Assembly (NCBI GenBank): GCA_002385415.1 | Contig: DGDL01000041.1 | Coordinates: 23,345 to 81,000 of the forward strand | Direction of reading: 5' to 3' | From: Clostridiales bacterium UBA3953 | GTDB lineage: Bacteria; Bacillota; Clostridia; Oscillospirales; CAG-272 | Length of the DNA: 57,656 nucleotides | Part shown: positions 9,458 to 25,744 of the stretch, piece after piece | Layout: every line of letters begins with the position of its first letter | How positions within the stretch are numbered: the first letter of the stretch is position 1 | Made by a program: the position numbers and the translations under genes | The notes under the pieces: generated by a model | What the model saw: only the letters and a program-made list of their open reading frames with translations | The model's database searches: none | What the model was told of the DNA's origin: nothing

Positions 9458-10990
9458 ATGACAGGTCACAAGCAAACCGTAGTGGTGCTCGATTTCGGCG
9501 GGCAGTATAAAGAACTTATCGCACAGAGCATACGCAAGCTCGGCGTATATTCCGAAATTTTGCCGGGCAACGCAACACTTGACGAAATTACAGCGTCCCG
9601 CCCCATTGGCATAATAATGACGGGTGGGCCGAGCAGCGTCGATGAAGATGACGCACTGACAGCCGACCCGAGGCTGTTTGAGCTGGGCATACCGGTGCTC
9701 GGCATTTGTTACGGTATGCAGCTCATGTGTCACATGCTGGGCGGCGAGGTCACCCGCGGCGAGCAGGGCGAATATGGGCGCGTCAAGGCGGAGCTTGACG
9801 ATAATTGTGTGCTGTTTAGGGGTATAGATACCCGACCGATGGTGCTAATGAGCCATCACGACCGTGTGAAAACCCTGCCGGAGGGATTTGAATGCTTCGG
9901 CAAGACCAAAACCTGCCCTATTGCGGCTTGTGGAAACGTGGAGAGAAAGCTCTATGCGCTGCAGTTTCATCCCGAGGTCAAAAACACCGACGAAGGTCAG
10001 GAGATTTTGCGCAATTTCCTTTTCGATGTCTGCGGCGCGACGGGCGACTACAGCATCGACGACTATATAGAGCAGTCAGTTTCCGAGATTCGCGAGCGGG
10101 TTGGGGACAAGCGTGTGCTGCTCGCGCTGTCGGGCGGAGTGGACTCGTCGGTCTGCGCGGCGCTTTTGTCGCGAGCGGTGCCCGGCCAGCTCACCTGCAT
10201 TTTCGTTGACCACGGTTTCATGCGCAAAAACGAGTCTGACGAGGTCGAGGCCGCGTTTTCCGGCCGTGATCTGCACTTTATACGCGTTGACGCCGCCGAC
10301 CGCTTCCTTGCAAAGCTTGCAGGCGTGACCGACCCTGAACAGAAGCGCAAGCTAATCGGCGCGGAGTTTGTGGCGGTGTTCGAGGAAGAGGCGAAACGAC
10401 TTGGCGAGATACACTTCCTTGCGCAGGGCACAATTTACTCGGACGTTGTCGAGTCGGGCGTCGGCAAATCGGCGAAAATAAAAAGCCACCACAATGTCGG
10501 CGGCCTGCCCGAGGAGATAGGATTCGAGGGCATCATAGAGCCGCTGAGAGGGCTGTTTAAAGACGAGGTACGCGAGCTGGGCCGCAGGCTCGGTTTGCCC
10601 GATGCGTTTGTCGAGCGCCAGCCATTCCCCGGCCCGGGGCTTGCAATCCGCATAATCGGCGAGGTGACGCGCGAAAAACTCGATATTTTGCGCGAGGCCG
10701 ACTATATATGCCGCACCGAGTTCGACAAGTTGAAAAAGAAGCCCGACCAGTATTTCGCGGTGCTTACCAACACCCGTTCGGTAGGCGTTATGGGGGACGG
10801 GCGCACTTATGCGTATGTGCTTGCTCTGCGCGCGGTTACAACTACCGATTTTATGACCTGTGACTATACGCGCATCCCGCACGCCACGCTTGCGCGCACC
10901 GCATCACGTATCGTAAACGAGGTGAGGGGAATCAGCCGCGTCGTGTTCGACATCACCGGCAAGCCGCCGGCAACAATTGAATGGGAATGA
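9458..10990 (+). CDS. guaA: GMP synthase (glutamine-hydrolysing)
   Basis: N-terminal GATase (ICYGMQ) and the ATP-pyrophosphatase motif SGGVDSSV. The C-terminus ends PPATIEWE. Confidence 0.92.
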   Translation: MTGHKQTVVVLDFGGQYKELIAQSIRKLGVYSEILPGNATLDEITASRPIGIIMTGGPSSVDEDDALTADPRLFELGIPVLGICYGMQLMCHMLGGEVTRGEQGEYGRVKAELDDNCVLFRGIDTRPMVLMSHHDRVKTLPEGFECFGKTKTCPIAACGNVERKLYALQFHPEVKNTDEGQEILRNFLFDVCGATGDYSIDDYIEQSVSEIRERVGDKRVLLALSGGVDSSVCAALLSRAVPGQLTCIFVDHGFMRKNESDEVEAAFSGRDLHFIRVDAADRFLAKLAGVTDPEQKRKLIGAEFVAVFEEEAKRLGEIHFLAQGTIYSDVVESGVGKSAKIKSHHNVGGLPEEIGFEGIIEPLRGLFKDEVRELGRRLGLPDAFVERQPFPGPGLAIRIIGEVTREKLDILREADYICRTEFDKLKKKPDQYFAVLTNTRSVGVMGDGRTYAYVLALRAVTTTDFMTCDYTRIPHATLARTASRIVNEVRGISRVVFDITGKPPATIEWE

Positions 10991-11006
10991 TAAAGTGAAA
11001 TTATAG

Positions 11007-11042
11007 GCCGCAAACCGAGAAACAACCGGTTTGCGGCTTTTC
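11007..11042 (+). terminator. intrinsic terminator after guaA
   Basis: Perfect 11-bp stem GCCGCAAACCG / CGGTTTGCGGC followed by TTTT. Confidence 0.8.
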
Positions 11043-11243
11043 AGTGTTTCCGGCGTATTATCAGACCGCGTTCAAAATCAATTACACGCGCAGCGCAGAT
11101 GAAAGACATTATTTATGACAACGTCGGCAATGCGTTTACGCTTGCCTGCGACTTGTCGTTGAGTGAATATCTACTACGGTTGCCTTGAAAAGGCAGGAGC
11201 AATATGCTCACTGCTTGAAAAACCCGCATATCAAAATTTTGAA

Positions 11244-11268
11244 GGCTGCGAAAGCAGCCCTTTATTTT
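11244..11268 (+). terminator. terminator-like GAAA-tetraloop hairpin in the guaA-cas3 spacer
   Basis: GGCTGC-GAAA-GCAGCC followed by CTTTATTTT. No gene was identified that it would terminate. Confidence 0.35.
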
Positions 11269-11295
11269 ACAAAACATTTCGGACCCTGACAACTA

Positions 11296-11324
11296 TTGAC
11301 ATGTATGTACATCGTTGGTATCAT
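11296..11324 (+). promoter_or_regulatory. sigma-A-type promoter upstream of the cas3 remnant
   Basis: TTGACA at 11296-11301, a 17-nt spacer, then TATCAT at 11319-11324. Confidence 0.45.
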
Positions 11325-11368
11325 TATGTATAAATTAAAATTTGTAAAGAGGGTGTTGGTGATGCAAA

Positions 11369-12160
11369 ATGACATATTACGCTCGCAAGTCTGAAGACGG
11401 CAGAAAACAAAGCATGAAAGAGCACGCGATGGGCGTAGCGGAGCGTGCAGGGCAATTTGCCGGCGCTTTCGGGTTTTCAGAGTACGGCAGGACAATTGGA
11501 CTGCATCACGACGACGGAAAATACACAAGCACGTTTCAGGCGCGGCTGGACGGCAGCGGCATTCAGTACGAGCACTCGTCTGCCGGCGCATACCTGCTTG
11601 CCAAAAAAGGATTTGAGACACGCGACCCTGTATATATAATGCTCGCCCATGCGATAGCGGGACATCACAGCGGGCTTCCAGACACCGGCTCGCGTAATTC
11701 GCCTGAAGACAGCGGTACTTTTTTCGGCAAGTACAACCGCCGGGAAAAGATGGTATTTGATTTCGGCGCTTATGAAAGTGAGCTTGGGCCGATAGGCACT
11801 CAAGCGGCGCTGCCGAAGGAGTTCAAAAATAATTACAGCCTGCAGTTTCTCGGGCGCATGTTGTTTTCGGCGCTCGTGGACGCGGATTTCCTCGATACCG
11901 AGCATTTTATGTCGGACGGCAAGATCAGCCGCATAAGTGGGGAGGATATTCCGACGCTCAAAGCGCGGTTTGACGCGCACATGCGGTCGAAATTTGCCGG
12001 TGCCGCCGGCCCGATAAACCAAAAACGCGCCGAAATTCTCGCCGCTTGCCGCGCGGCGGCGGAGGGTGAGCGGGGAATATACAGACTCACCGTCCCGACC
12101 GGTGGGGGAAAGACGCTGTCGTCGCTTGCATTTGCGCACCACACGGGGGACGTGGGTTGA
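11369..12160 (+). pseudogene. cas3: truncated CRISPR-associated helicase/nuclease Cas3 (HD domain plus helicase motif I only), fused in frame to a CRISPR repeat
   Basis: HD-domain motifs (GLHHDDGKY, HAIAGHHSGLPD) and Walker A/motif I (VPTGGGKTLSSLAFA) are present. The last 7 codons (HHTGDVG) and the TGA stop are encoded by CRISPR repeat sequence, so roughly two thirds of a normal Cas3 is missing. Confidence 0.8.
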
Positions 12161-12299
12161 AATCATACGCGTCCGATTTTGTTTGGCTAAAGGATAGCGT
12201 CGTCCCCCACACGGGGGACGTGGGTTGAAATTATTACGCCATCGGAAAAAGTACCAGCAGGCACGTGTCGTCCCCCACACGGGGGACGTGGGATAGGGG
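12139..12299 (+). CRISPR. residual type I-C-like CRISPR array: one 5'-truncated repeat, one full repeat, one repeat intact for 26 nt, and two 35-nt spacers
   Basis: The 33-nt repeat GTCGTCCCCCACACGGGGGACGTGGGTTGAAAT is full length at 12199-12231. Its positions 9-33 occur at 12139-12163 and positions 1-26 at 12267-12292. The spacers lie at 12164-12198 and 12232-12266. A palindromic core with a ...TTGAAAT tail is typical of I-C repeats. Confidence 0.85.
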
Positions 12300-12322
12300 A
12301 AATATTTTCGGAGGATGTTACA

Positions 12323-12955
12323 ATGCATAAAAAGATAATTGCGATTTTAATAATTTTATTTAATGTTTCATTACATACTTCGTGTAGAATAGTTGTTTTT
12401 CCTGAAAAATTGCCGAGCTTTTATTTAGATATCAATCAAAAAACAAACAACAATGAAAAAACAAGTGATAATGAAACCAATGAAAAAAGTATTACTCCAT
12501 ATTTGCTGCAATCAGGAGATGTTATTAAGGATAATGGTTTCTTTCAAGTAGGCGAAGTAACATTTCTGTATTCAAATGACATCTTTAAAGTAACAAACAA
12601 TAGCGAAAGTATTGTTAGAGTAACATGTATGGTCATTGGTACTAAAGTTGATGGGACTTATGAAATATTGCAGTATGCAGGATTTGGCGGAATTGATCAG
12701 ACAAAATACAAAAAAGATCTCGAAGAAAACGGATGGGCTGTTGAACATTATACAAATATGATAAGGCCTGGGGAAACGCTGTATGCAACATTATCGATTA
12801 GCGATTTCCAATATGAAGGAGTTCCCAAGCCTGACATTGACAATGACGGATTTTATGAGTTAAAGTTTATGATTAGTCCACAAAGTAACGAGGATGTAAT
12901 TGAAATTTCATTAAATGATCCCGTATCAGATATGTATAAACTTCCAGTTGATTGA
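12323..12955 (+). CDS. hypothetical secreted/lipoprotein-like protein on an AT-rich insertion
   Basis: A GGAGGA RBS lies 8 nt upstream. The N-terminus MHKKIIAILIILFNVSLHTSC has a signal-peptide shape with a Cys at the end, an Asn/Lys-rich linker, then a beta-rich domain. Lines counted by hand gave about 30-32% G+C, against about 63% in the flanking cas3 DNA. Confidence 0.6.
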   Translation: MHKKIIAILIILFNVSLHTSCRIVVFPEKLPSFYLDINQKTNNNEKTSDNETNEKSITPYLLQSGDVIKDNGFFQVGEVTFLYSNDIFKVTNNSESIVRVTCMVIGTKVDGTYEILQYAGFGGIDQTKYKKDLEENGWAVEHYTNMIRPGETLYATLSISDFQYEGVPKPDIDNDGFYELKFMISPQSNEDVIEISLNDPVSDMYKLPVD

Positions 12956-13046
12956 TTATGCCTATTTGCATTTGATAATGTATTTTAATATAAAATTTTG
13001 TTGTTTTCCATGGTGTCTCTTGTTGCCTCTATCGCGTTGAGATAGA

Positions 13047-13073
13047 TTGAAATAGCGTCCCCCACGCGGGGAC
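13047..13073 (+). repeat. CRISPR repeat relics: repeat tail TTGAAAT followed after 1 nt by a degenerate repeat head
   Basis: 13047-13053 is TTGAAAT, which equals repeat positions 27-33. 13055-13073 is GCGTCCCCCACGCGGGGAC, compared with repeat positions 2-21 TCGTCCCCCACACGGGGGAC. Confidence 0.6.
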
Positions 13074-13082
13074 TTTTCTTTT
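13057..13082 (+). terminator. intrinsic terminator built from the repeat-like palindrome
   Basis: Stem GTCCCC / GGGGAC with a 5-nt loop, followed by TTTTCTTTT. Confidence 0.5.
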
Positions 13083-13093
13083 ACTCCCCCTTG

Positions 13094-13109
13094 AATTTGC
13101 CGGCAAATT
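13094..13109. promoter_or_regulatory. perfect 16-bp palindrome (candidate operator) overlapping a -35-like TTGAAT upstream of the MFS gene
   Basis: AATTTGCCGGCAAATT. The half-site GGCAAATT recurs near 13226. Confidence 0.35.
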
Positions 13110-13269
13110 ATTGCATAATATATTAATCAACCCAAATTGCAAAGCGGAGCTGTAAAATGACAGACAAAAACAAAGCAGCGCAGTCTCGCGCGGATGCCCG
13201 ACGCTGTAATATTCCGACTTTTCCGGTGGCAAATTTTGTGTTAAACCGAGCGCCCAGACAGGAGCTTTT

Positions 13270-14583
13270 ATGAGAAAACCGGTGTTTTCCAGGGAATCCC
13301 GGCGACTGTTTTTGCTCTGTTTTTTTGCTTACTCGGCAATATACATCGGGCGTAAAAACTTTTCGGTCTGCATGCCGGGCATGATAGAGGCGGGGGTAAT
13401 CGACAAGGTGCTCGGCGGCACGACGGGGACGGCATTCCTTGCGGCTTACGCTTGCGGCCAGCTTATAAACGGGCTGCTCGGCGACCGCATAAACCCCAAA
13501 TATATGATAGCCGGCGGACTGATGGGCGCCGCCGCCGCCAATATAGCCATGGGTGCAAACAGCACGCCCGCATTCTTCCCGATAATATGGGGTATAAACG
13601 GGTTTTTCTGTTCGATGATATGGGCGCCGACTATACGCATCCTTTCGGAAGGGTTAAGCGAAAAGGAGCGTCAGTCGGGCGGGGTCGCAATCTCGGTCTC
13701 TATACCGACCGGTACTGTGCTGTCATATTTGGTTTGTGCCGCCGTGCTCGGATTTGCCGATTGGCGCGCCGCCTTTTTCGGCTGCGGCGTTATTCTTGCC
13801 GCCGCGTCAACTATATTTTATATCAATATGACCGCGCTTTCGCGCCAAAAAGCGACCGAGGGCGCGCAAAGTACGCCCGAGCGTACTGATACACCGGACG
13901 CGGTGCAGAGCGCCCCGCTTCCCGAACATCTTGCAAAGCTTAAAAAAGCAAGTCTACCGGTATTAATACTCTATACGGGTCTTTGTTTTGCAATCGGTGG
14001 TATTCTTTTTAACGGGATACTCAAGGACGGGCTCGACCTTTGGGTTCCATCATATATAAGCGAGTATTTCGGCATGGACGATGCGGCTGTGGCGGCGCTT
14101 TCGACCGTGCTTCCCATAGTAAATATAACCGGCATTTATTTCGCGCGCATGATAAACGTGCGCTATATACGCAACGAGCTTGGCACCTGCGCCCTGCTGT
14201 TCGGTATCAGCGCAATTTCGTTTATCCCTCTTGTGTTCATCTCGCTAGCCGGTGTGCGCGGCATAGTGCCCGCTATATTTGCGGTGCTTTTGATTTCGAT
14301 AACCAGCGGGACGATGCTGGGTATAAACTCGATGCTGTTGACCTTTATCCCGTTCAGGTTCGCCCGGCTCAACCGCTCCTCGTCGGTGACGGGATTTTTA
14401 AACTTCTGCTCGTATGCGGCTGCCTCACTTTCTGGTGTGACAATCGGGCTGATTTCGTCATCGTTCGGCTGGACTGTAACCGTAATCTCGTTTATGGCAG
14501 TGTCGCTTTCGGGCGCCGCCGTCTGTGCTGCCGGACTGAAAATTTGGAGGCGCAGCGCAGATATGCTCAGTGACGAGCCGTAA
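13270..14583 (+). CDS. MFS transporter (organophosphate/sugar-phosphate antiporter-like)
   Basis: 437 aa with about 12 predicted TM segments and an MFS-like loop pattern (GQLINGLLGDRINPK). A CAGGAG RBS is present. Confidence 0.8.
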   Translation: MRKPVFSRESRRLFLLCFFAYSAIYIGRKNFSVCMPGMIEAGVIDKVLGGTTGTAFLAAYACGQLINGLLGDRINPKYMIAGGLMGAAAANIAMGANSTPAFFPIIWGINGFFCSMIWAPTIRILSEGLSEKERQSGGVAISVSIPTGTVLSYLVCAAVLGFADWRAAFFGCGVILAAASTIFYINMTALSRQKATEGAQSTPERTDTPDAVQSAPLPEHLAKLKKASLPVLILYTGLCFAIGGILFNGILKDGLDLWVPSYISEYFGMDDAAVAALSTVLPIVNITGIYFARMINVRYIRNELGTCALLFGISAISFIPLVFISLAGVRGIVPAIFAVLLISITSGTMLGINSMLLTFIPFRFARLNRSSSVTGFLNFCSYAAASLSGVTIGLISSSFGWTVTVISFMAVSLSGAAVCAAGLKIWRRSADMLSDEP

Positions 14584-24238: not shown

Positions 24239-25068
24239 GGTTTGGCACTCCGTTTTGCTCGCGCATTGGTATAGCCGCCGGGCATACCCGCATCGCGCGC
24301 CGCGCCAAATATGTTTGCCGCGTCAGTGCCGTTTGATTTGGCGGTACTGTCCGCCGCGGCAGCCATAGTGGCCGCGCCCGATTTGTTTGGCGGTGCAGCT
24401 CCGTTTGCTGCGGCAAATTTTGCCGTGGCAACATTTCCGCTTTTTTTACCGGATAGCGTTTCTTTCATTTTATTAATATGCTTTTCCAATATTGTCGGCA
24501 AGCGTGCAAAAAGCACTGCCGCGACGGCGCAAATGCCCGAACAAATCCAAACGGGCACAAGAATCTCGTCGGGAGCTGCAGACCCGGCAGCCGTGCGCAG
24601 TGCAAGCAGGGTTGTCGGAATAATGTCAAGCGAAGCGGTTGAAAGTACGGCAAATGTCACCATTTCGTCGGTTGCCCGACCGCTTGCGGCAAACTCCTCA
24701 CCGCCGTTTTTCGCAAGCGCTTTCACCGCCGCGATGGAAAGCGGTGTAGCGGCGTTGCCAAGCCCCAGCATATTGGCAGTTACCGCCGCAGTGATCTCGG
24801 ATATGCCGTTTTGCTTGCGATAAGCGTCGGGGAAGACAAGCCGTAACAAAGGTGCCGCGAGCGCACCGAGCGCTCGAGTTGCGCCCGCCGCGTCGAGCAC
24901 GCGAATAATCCCATTCCAGAGCGCCATCGTGCCGAGCAGTCCCAGCGATACGGTAACGGCCGATGAGGCACCGGTCGCCACTGCCGCGCCGAGCTCTGCT
25001 ATTCTGCCTGTCGCCGCCGCGCAGATAAAAGACAACACACAAAGCACGCCGAAAACTTTACTTAACAT
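24235..25068 (-). CDS. spmA: spore maturation protein A with an ~80-aa Ala/Gly/Lys-rich C-terminal extension
   Basis: The first ~195 aa are SpmA-like (GLLGTMALWNGI..., ANMLGLGNAATPL). The rest is a low-complexity tail. Confidence 0.8.
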   Translation of the reverse strand: MLSKVFGVLCVLSFICAAATGRIAELGAAVATGASSAVTVSLGLLGTMALWNGIIRVLDAAGATRALGALAAPLLRLVFPDAYRKQNGISEITAAVTANMLGLGNAATPLSIAAVKALAKNGGEEFAASGRATDEMVTFAVLSTASLDIIPTTLLALRTAAGSAAPDEILVPVWICSGICAVAAVLFARLPTILEKHINKMKETLSGKKSGNVATAKFAAANGAAPPNKSGAATMAAAADSTAKSNGTDAANIFGAARDAGMPGGYTNARAKRSAKP

Positions 25069-25141
25069 GTTACAAATTACCGTCCAAATGTGAATTATAT
25101 ATTAAAATTGTAAAATATATATAAAAAAACAGCGTTATTGC

Positions 25142-25170
25142 TTGACTAAAATCCAAATAAATGGTAAAAT
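25142..25170 (+). promoter_or_regulatory. sigma-A-type promoter of abrB
   Basis: TTGACT at 25142-25147, a 17-nt spacer, then the extended -10 TGgTAAAAT with TAAAAT at 25165-25170. Confidence 0.55.
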
Positions 25171-25210
25171 TGGAAAAGCATGAATTGTGTAGAAAAATTG
25201 CATAAATTAC

Positions 25211-25217
25211 TGTCGAA
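25211..25217 (+). promoter_or_regulatory. Spo0A-box-like site (TGTCGAA) between the abrB promoter and start codon
   Basis: Exact match to the TGNCGAA 0A-box core. It lies within the near-tandem TTACTGTCGAAA / TTACTGTAAAC. Confidence 0.45.
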
Positions 25218-25251
25218 ATTTACTGTAAACATCTAAAGGAGAAAGCAATTA

Positions 25252-25500
25252 ATGAAATCCACCGGAATAGTCAGGAAGATTGACGAGCTTGGCCGTATCG
25301 TTCTTCCAATTGAGATTCGCAATACTATGGACATCAAGGCACGCGACGCTATTGAGATTTTCACCGACGATGATAAAATAATATTGAAGAAATACGAGCC
25401 GGCTTGTATTTTCTGCGGCAATGCGGACAATGTCACGTTTTTCCGCGGAAAACTTATCTGCCGTGAATGCCTGGAAAGTTTGCGCAGCACGATGGTGTAA
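25252..25500 (+). CDS. abrB: AbrB/SpoVT-family transition-state regulator
   Basis: The N-terminus MKSTGIVRKIDELGRIVLPIEIR matches the swapped-hairpin AbrB domain. An AAAGGAG RBS is present. Confidence 0.88.
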   Translation: MKSTGIVRKIDELGRIVLPIEIRNTMDIKARDAIEIFTDDDKIILKKYEPACIFCGNADNVTFFRGKLICRECLESLRSTMV

Positions 25501-25524
25501 GATTCCTGGATATACATAACGGTG

Positions 25525-25552
25525 GGCGCAACTGTAAAATTGCGCCTTTTTT
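25525..25552 (+). terminator. intrinsic terminator after abrB
   Basis: GGCGCAA / TTGCGCC stem followed by TTTTTT. Confidence 0.75.
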
Positions 25553-25616
25553 GATGCCGTATGCAAAGCTTATGATGGGACGCTTATGCTGCTGCTGCAG
25601 GCACCAATTCAAATCG

Positions 25617-25660
25617 AATTCCTCCGTTCGGATATGTATTCGAACGGAGGAATTTTTATG
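25617..25660 (+). terminator. second strong hairpin/terminator 65 nt downstream of the first
   Basis: 14-bp stem AATTCCTCCGTTCG / CGAACGGAGGAATT followed by a T-rich tract. Confidence 0.55.
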
Positions 25661-25744
25661 CGTTTTTGTATTTTTTACTGAATAAAACGTGTTTTGGTTG
25701 AGCATTATATATTCAGCAGGAATTAGGAAGGATGGGAATATTTA

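Follow-up and report, generated by a model that had tools for sequence, protein, structure and literature searches.

An AT-rich segment inside a CRISPR repeat

The DNA analysed here is a stretch of 57,656 nucleotides (the window) from Clostridiales bacterium UBA3953 (contig DGDL01000041.1, positions 23,345 to 81,000 of the forward strand). Between guaA and a gene for a major facilitator superfamily (MFS) transporter, it carries the remnant of a type I-C CRISPR locus, in which one repeat is split by 754 bp of AT-rich DNA with a single open reading frame (ORF). An earlier note, made from the letters alone, had described the split repeat and proposed that it could be due to a repeat-targeting mobile cassette, to an aberrant integration event or to recombination. 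The features of the array and of the insert are listed below.

12139–12163, + strand: R1, nucleotides 9–33 of the repeat only; abuts cas3 without a gap, a deletion junction
12164–12198, + strand: spacer S1, 35 nt
12199–12231, + strand: R2, GTCGTCCCCCACACGGGGGACGTGGGTTGAAAT, of type I-C style, the sole complete 33-nt repeat
12232–12266, + strand: spacer S2, 35 nt
12267–12292, + strand: R3, nucleotides 1–26 of the repeat, left junction, the same in all strains
12293–13046, + strand: AT-rich foreign insert, 754 bp, 31.7% G+C
12323–12955, + strand: ORF of 210 aa, with the ribosome-binding site GGAGGA at 12310–12315, 7 nt before the ATG
13047–13053, + strand: TTGAAAT, nucleotides 27–33 of the repeat (its tail), right junction
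13055–13082, + strand: R4', a degenerate repeat head GCGTCCCCCACGCGGGGAC (13055–13073) with a hairpin at 13057–13073, followed by TTTTCTTTT; scores as an intrinsic terminator

Direct reading of the sequence showed that R3 equals R2 over nucleotides 1–26 and then departs from the repeat with ATAGGGG. The junctions read GTGGG/ATAGGGG on the left and GATAGA/TTGAAAT on the right (a slash marks the joint), and the repeat tail is found only on the right. The positions given earlier for the two halves of the third repeat, for ATAG (12293–12296) and GATAG (13041–13045) at the ends of the insert, for the ribosome-binding site and for the 210-aa ORF were all borne out by this reading. R1, R2 and R3 follow one another with a period of 68 nt and 35-nt spacers, which fits the type I-C pattern. 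The repeat has the length of about 32–33 nt, the GC-rich hairpin, the ...TTGAAAT/C tail and the spacers of about 34–36 nt by which a type I-C repeat was recognised, and its consensus at this locus consists of one full repeat and two partial ones.

The insert differs sharply in composition from its surroundings. Its G+C content is 31.7%, compared with a window mean of 54.7%, and the G+C content at third codon positions (GC3) of its ORF is 0.25, compared with 0.61–0.69 in seven neighbouring genes. These results show that the insert is foreign DNA by composition, as had been supposed from two lines counted by hand. Among the ORFs of 60 aa or more in the 754 bp, a single one has coding character, and no integrase, transposase or TnpA was found near the insert. 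Searches of its ends found no terminal inverted repeats, target duplication or repeated ends, and no second copy of any part of it was present within the window. A 6-bp hairpin, TCTATC-N7-GATAGA, was read directly just 5' of the right junction; no partner hairpin was found at the left end. An integron attC site (a pair of the form RYYYAAC...GTTRRRY) was also absent, and the junctions are G/AT and A/TT, not G/TT twice. Thus, the description of a single gene without recombinase or terminal inverted repeats stood within the window, where none of the marks of insertion sequences (IS), miniature inverted-repeat transposable elements, Tn7-like elements or IS200/IS605 elements was found (paired subterminal hairpins, terminal inverted repeats, a duplication, extra copies, a transposase).

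At the right junction the array is irregular. One base after TTGAAAT, GCGTCCCCCACGCGGGGAC (13055–13073) is a degenerate copy of repeat nucleotides 3–21. No spacer separates TTGAAAT from R4', which itself ends without a tail, so that removal of the insert would not give back a normal array. Therefore, the statement that joining the two halves recreates the repeat holds for the sequence of the repeat, but not for the array, and at least one further rearrangement besides the insertion has occurred at this junction. The match of the 7-nt tail was weak when taken alone: TTGAAAT occurs 16 times in the window (9.8 expected), including one copy inside the insert at 12900, and under a first-order Markov model of the insert it appeared somewhere in the insert in 37% of simulations (P=0.37). 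It became meaningful by its position beside R4', as TTGAAAT arose within 3 nt of the R4' head in 0.2% of simulations under the same model (P about 0.002). At the right end, GTTGCC...GATAGATTGAAAT was considered as a possible CRISPR repeat of foreign origin and put down to chance: by hand count it is identical to the I-C consensus at 17/33 positions, 10/26 outside the tail, and it has no IMG/VR match. A search of IMG/VR for the protospacers of S1 (first 23 nt) and S2 (first 24 nt) gave no match, and an Rfam search of 10900–13400 returned nothing relevant.

We then examined how widely this arrangement occurs. In the assembly collection, 67 blocks contained the exact 210-aa protein and 47 contained the cas3 remnant. 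The contigs read were up to 462 kb long and came from ENA, Logan, JGI and NCBI, mostly from anaerobic digesters or biogas reactors. In every one of them (23 and 22 contigs, respectively) the gene order was guaA, cas3 remnant, array remnant, ORF and MFS gene. Both junctions were identical in at least 22 independent contigs, including that of the most divergent strain, L039. These results show that the arrangement is fixed in the species and give the junctions the support that the earlier note had lacked. The G+C content does step abruptly at a repeat, and assemblies commonly break there (those of L028 and L036 end inside arrays), as would be seen if a low-G+C contig had been wrongly joined into a CRISPR repeat. 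However, the same junctions recur in contigs of up to 462 kb from differing samples, assemblers and archives, and an assembly chimera, whose probability we regard as negligible, is excluded by these contigs.

The inserted gene and its phage relatives

The 210-aa protein has an N-terminal signal or anchor helix, an Asn/Lys-rich disordered linker (residues 17–54) and a beta-sandwich (residues 60–210). In the AlphaFold model, residues 60–210 had a predicted local distance difference test score (pLDDT) above 90 and formed a beta-sandwich with one helix, preceded by the N-terminal helix and the disordered linker. Pfam, NCBIfam, PADLOC and PHROGs gave no significant match for the protein, and a fold search against PDB and BFVD gave none either (best E-value 1.5e-3, template-modelling score below 0.35).

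The N-terminus had been described as lipoprotein-like. A lipobox has the form [LVI][ASTVI][GAS]C at the end of the signal peptide, and His at position -3 breaks this usual rule (PROSITE PS51257). In the 210-aa protein the motif is SLHTS-C, so the Cys is present, but the residue at -3 is His, and in the homologues the anchor is a transmembrane helix that has no Cys; two of them carry a zinc ribbon ahead of this helix. On these sequence features, a lipoprotein status appears doubtful.

A search of 5.8 billion proteins recovered variants from the same species and five relatives at 43–49% identity; outside this locus, identities did not exceed about 50%. A profile search against 1.84 billion cluster representatives extended the family to 69 clusters, and IMG/VR contained two relatives at 44–46% identity. 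When the donor was sought, neither GenBank phages, by DNA or protein, nor plasmids gave a match. Every relative with a readable context lies in a phage (L011, L012, L013, L018 and L019). In L011 the homologue is upstream of Bro-N and of a tyrosine integrase gene that converges on a holin-endolysin module, about 2 kb from the integrase end. In L012, L013 and L018 it is on the opposite strand between the Gp15-like and tape-measure genes, and in L019 it is between the major tail protein gene and those for Ant and the tape measure. Each homologue was 2–11 points lower in G+C than its own phage. A terminator formed by a hairpin and a T-run lies directly 3' of the homologue in three of the four cases inspected (L012, L018 and L019), and L012 also has a recognisable promoter. 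These results show that the relatives are phage morons and that the gene family is affiliated with phages. Because the protein appears to be exported and tethered to the membrane and is supplied by temperate phages, its role may be one of the surface functions that prophages give their hosts, such as superinfection exclusion.

A decayed type I-C locus at a variable site

The array is the end of a locus that has lost most of its parts. The earlier note had not recorded that cas3 is truncated and fused to a repeat, or that the array is a relic with other illegitimate junctions. The flanking features are as follows.

11296–11324, + strand: promoter-like site TTGACA-17-TATCAT with TG, ahead of the cas3 remnant; putative transcription source for the whole relic including the ORF
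11369–12160, + strand: truncated cas3 (HD domain and Walker A motif, PTGGGKT), whose final 7 codons and stop are supplied by R1
13091–13119, + strand: promoter-like site of the MFS gene, native; here homology with the array-less relatives L037 and L041 begins and the variable region ends
13270–14583, + strand: MFS transporter gene, the conserved right flank

The cas3 remnant matched TIGR01596 cas3_HD with 89 bits (cut-off 43), as well as the HD entry of Pfam. Its Walker A motif is PTGGGKTLSSLAFA, after which the reading frame enters nucleotides 9–33 of the repeat at 12139–12163, while Cas3 of relatives runs on as ...AFALEHA... or ...AFALDHL.... The fusion thus lies directly past Walker A, with microhomology of at most 1 nt. 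The remnant is 55% identical to cas3 in the complete I-C operon of a relative, where the order is cas3-cas5d-csd1-cas7-cas4-cas1-cas2. A tblastn search with the Cas proteins of L016 found no further cas genes in the window. Since nothing but the HD part of cas3 is left, the locus is a relic and not a working type I-C system, and one deletion of at least 6 kb joined cas3 to the middle of a repeat.

Further decay was seen among the strains. L001 and L006 carry a frameshift in the cas3 remnant. In L004, at about 9800–9870, between S1 and S2, there is an extra aberrant 60-nt unit made of a repeat cut after nucleotide 25 and 35 nt of other sequence, and the repeat that follows it ends TTAAAAT. This unit is a second repeat at the locus whose tail was lost at nearly the same position (nucleotide 25/26), and it has been lost from the other strains by recombination between repeats. 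The locus is therefore decaying, with several illegitimate junctions, the insert among them. Another I-C locus without effector genes was observed in an unrelated lineage (L015, 4943–7049), in which cas1 and cas2 come immediately after an HD-only cas3 ORF of 256 aa and a WYL-domain gene lies upstream of it.

Repeats nearly identical to those of the window form arrays of 17–71 units in L029–L035, seven JGI contigs that belong to another organism and whose trailers are unrelated. Their repeat tail is ATTGAAAT, compared with GTTGAAAT in the window; no active array with the GTTGAAAT tail was found in the JGI scan, although the search pattern admitted that tail. A solitary type I-C-like repeat, CAGCTCCCCTCACGGGGGACGTGGATTGAAAT, was also seen in the IMG/VR contig L040 (11724–11756), where it follows a terminator-like hairpin and lies 22 nt 5' of a nucleotidyltransferase-like ORF (11778–12446). 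It may be a phage-borne mimic of a repeat or a regulatory RNA. Solitary repeats in phages are documented (PMC10651486).

The surroundings of the inserted gene were examined for transcription signals. The 30 nt of the insert before the ATG contain no promoter-like site, and none was found on the + strand between 11640 and the start of the ORF; the nearest strong one on this strand is TTGACA-17-TATCAT at 11296–11324, ahead of the cas3 remnant. The 91-nt AT-rich tail 3' of the ORF contains no terminator; the first one is the R4' hairpin with TTTTCTTTT (13057–13082). Judged from these predicted signals, the gene is most likely read through from the promoter of the relic cas3 via the array remnant, with transcription ending at a former CRISPR repeat.

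The flanks were compared with those of related species. The sister species L036 has an MFS protein 69% identical to that of the window, and its gene is followed by the same downstream genes (GH76, amidase, MscS and RsgA). Directly 5' of the MFS gene (L036, 1–130) it has a repeat GTCGTCCCCCTCGCGGGGGACGTGGGTTAATAT, a 35-nt spacer and a degenerate terminal repeat tCGTCCCCATCGCGGGGATGTGGGTTAAAAT, and its array stops about 30 nt before the MFS start codon. Because an array is present at the same site in the sister species, the sequences show the CRISPR array to be ancestral at this site. Like R4', the terminal repeat of L036 is without the leading GT and one G of the G-run, which weakly suggests that R4' is its counterpart. 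The last "spacer" of L036 holds TTGTGATATAAT, which resembles an extended -10 element and from which the MFS gene may be driven.

Two further relatives, with MFS 74% identical to that of the window, have no array. One (L037/L038) has a GNAT gene upstream. The other (L041, 1–420) has a different AT-rich segment of 22–38% G+C with an unrelated leftward ORF (MKYEQKGVELRNQF...), which abuts the conserved MFS promoter and whose boundary aligns with R4' and the T-run of the window. The MFS promoter and leader are common to the window and these array-less relatives from about 13085 on. Since the promoter is shared and the DNA upstream of it differs, the upstream region is variable and has taken up AT-rich foreign DNA on more than one occasion, with or without repeats; on this comparison, foreign DNA seems to land at the site recurrently. 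A scan of GTDB genomes with the MFS protein gave one relative at 52% identity, which was uninformative for synteny; the useful relatives L036, L037 and L041 came from protein look-ups.

Origin of the insert

We favour a one-off illegitimate capture of a phage DNA fragment in a dead type I-C locus, rather than a new kind of mobile element, and give this explanation about an even chance of being correct. A single event is argued for by the single context in at least 22 contigs, the lack of a close homologue elsewhere and the lack of terminal inverted repeats, target duplication and repeated ends. The different AT-rich gene of L041 at the same boundary also speaks for a capture at this site. In such a course of events, a large deletion would have taken the helicase part of cas3 and all its partner genes, together with the leader and the greater part of the array. 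A phage fragment of about 0.75 kb would then have been joined into this already unstable, hairpin-rich relic by a single non-homologous or microhomology event without a dedicated recombinase, with its left joint after nucleotide 26 of a repeat and its right joint at the repeat tail next to the degenerate terminal repeat. It would carry one moron gene for an exported, membrane-tethered beta-sandwich protein, having lost its own promoter and terminator on joining. The gene would now be transcribed from the promoter of the relic cas3 and terminated at the degenerate repeat hairpin, and its product may have a surface role, such as blocking a superinfecting phage. The joining mechanism, the transcription pattern and the role of the protein are what we infer from this arrangement. 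Of the explanations in the earlier note, a recombination product or the footprint of an aberrant integration is what the evidence favours, whereas the repeat-targeting mobile cassette did not hold up, as a single insertion was seen, confined to one species, the window has no further copy of it, and element ends and attC are absent.

Several observations weigh against a one-off capture. The repeat was split exactly, with 0 nt lost or gained, which is more typical of site-specific recombination or transposition. The tail TTGAAAT is probably derived from the repeat, because its position beside R4' is improbable by chance, and the missing spacer between the tail and R4' demands one more deletion that the capture does not explain. 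JGI metagenomes contained no empty-site allele, in which an intact repeat would follow S2, and no donor phage was found from which the order of events could be read.

The exact split could also be accounted for if the insert were the relic of a temperate phage that integrated site-specifically into CRISPR repeats and was later deleted to one gene, with array erosion as a by-product of integration and excision cycles. There is a precedent in phage AP1.1 of Streptococcus pyogenes (type II-A), whose attP shares 8 bp with the repeat, which enters any repeat and whose cycles erase arrays (bioRxiv 10.1101/2020.10.09.333658). At the locus, the array is heavily eroded and the split is clean, and the right junction, with phage DNA, (A)TTGAAAT and host DNA in succession, resembles an attR; the homologue in L011 lies in a lysogeny module about 2 kb from the integrase end. 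However, no integrase or other phage remnant is left between the repeat halves. At the left junction there is no second copy of the core, although a tyrosine integrase would leave one, and there is no shared dinucleotide for a serine integrase. At least one deletion, and more likely two, would be needed, with ends no more than 30 nt and 91 nt from the att junctions. The sequence of the repeat head and junction was found in no IMG/VR phage. IMG/VR and GenBank phages gave no attP match either, though the donor would be an unsampled phage. We consider such an origin unlikely. Somewhat less probable still is its full form, in which the insert would be the last piece of a temperate phage that used type I-C repeats as its att site, the promoterless surface-protein gene, placed beside the junction, would have been expressed from cas or array transcription only when integrated, and the CRISPR-Cas locus would afterwards have been ruined by rounds of integration and excision or by selection against self-targeting.

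An exchange with foreign repeat-bearing DNA, such as a solitary repeat or mini-array of a phage or the array of another strain, would rely on repeat homology on one side and ATTGAAAT microhomology on the other (homology-facilitated illegitimate recombination). The right junction does match 9 nt (GATTGAAAT) of the consensus tail of the L029–L035 family, and the solitary I-C-like repeat of viral contig L040, an instance of DNA of this kind, ends GGGGGACGTGGATTGAAAT. However, L040 is unrelated to the insert, exact-word scans of IMG/VR with the repeat head, the tail and the right-end 20-mer were empty, no phage with a close copy of the gene was found, and the origin of the junction is only shifted to an unseen donor, all of which makes this course improbable. 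Still further down in probability is an aberrant integration by Cas1-Cas2, in which the 0.75 kb would be a giant spacer between a complete but mutated R3 (GTGGG-ATAGGG-GAAAT) and R4'. Parts of the repeat hairpin flank the insert (12270–12287 and 13057–13073), as they would a new spacer, and GAAAT is present at 12299–12303, but AAAT or GAAAT near an AT-rich start is expected by chance (estimated at about 0.1), whereas TTGAAAT beside R4' is not. Cas1-Cas2 adds spacers of about 35 nt at the leader end, not the trailer end, of an array; the insert is at the trailer end and 0.75 kb long, unlike normal acquisition, R4' has no tail and no adaptation genes are left. We also considered a non-autonomous cassette that targets repeat hairpins, either integron-like (at G/TT) or of the single-strand IS200/IS605 type. 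Its promoterless single ORF, its short 5' leader, the split at G/TT of the repeat and the 6-bp hairpin before the right junction are compatible with such an element. The junction bases (G/AT and A/TT), the absence of attC and the single copy largely refute it, and with no left-end hairpin, one context in one species and no integrase or TnpA nearby, we give it the smallest chance of these mechanisms.

Compared with known systems, the captured phage moron in a decayed type I-C locus is best filed as a member of kinds already known. Phage morons are independent genes, usually rich in AT, that stand as single units in the genomes of temperate phages. Like them, the gene is a single ORF with its own ribosome-binding site and a G+C content below that of its surroundings (0.32 versus 0.55 for the window), and its relatives are extra genes of phages. 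Unlike morons, the copy in the window lies in a bacterial chromosome, not surrounded by a prophage, and has no promoter or terminator of its own. The locus resembles orphan CRISPR loci after cas loss, to which L015 is comparable, in that cas3 is cut, effector and adaptation genes are gone, 2–3 spacers remain and repeats are aberrant; it differs in the intact foreign gene lodged within it, which appears to use the transcription signals of the relic. As in prophages of the AP1.1 type, DNA of phage type splits a repeat at a defined position in an array of which a few units are left. The insert, however, measures 0.75 kb versus about 40 kb, without integrase, prophage or duplicated core, and the system is type I-C in a clostridial digester host.

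Foreign DNA also interrupts CRISPR arrays in the case of array-targeting transposons, namely IS elements and Tn7-like elements of cyanobacteria. Such transposons have transposition genes and defined ends, and the Tn7-like ones enter spacers at a fixed position (PMC11837452); all three features are absent from the insert. With integron cassettes it shares the promoterless single ORF, the lack of its own recombinase and a target split at G/TT, but attC and an integron platform are missing and the bases at its junctions do not fit. One prophage surface protein for superinfection exclusion is the Ltp lipoprotein of Streptococcus thermophilus phage TP-J34. The 210-aa protein is likewise predicted to be small and exported or tethered, and its L011 homologue is in a lysogeny module upstream of an integrase; it has, however, no sequence or fold match to any characterised protein.

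If the capture took place as proposed, the locus would be a natural meeting of two known processes, the decay of CRISPR-Cas by illegitimate deletion and the domestication of a moron, which here would borrow the promoter of a dead locus and use a repeat hairpin as its terminator. The small uncharacterised phage family of exported beta-sandwich proteins provides candidates for superinfection exclusion in clostridial phages. If the insert were instead the footprint of a repeat-targeted prophage, a counter-defence known so far only from Streptococcus pyogenes would extend to type I-C, as the first case of a repeat-attaching phage outside streptococcal type II-A.

Two further observations concern the rest of the window. 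Between the MFS promoter-like site and the MFS start there is a leader of about 150 nt (13120–13269), conserved in L037 and L041, that holds a short ORF starting with ATGACA at 13157; it has no Rfam match and may be regulatory. The only other clearly low-G+C stretch of the window (25000–25700, 30–45%) looks ordinary: it consists of AT-rich intergenic DNA and an ORF for an AbrB/SpoVT-like regulator (25252–25500), between genes for a spore-maturation-like membrane protein and an M23-peptidase-like protein.

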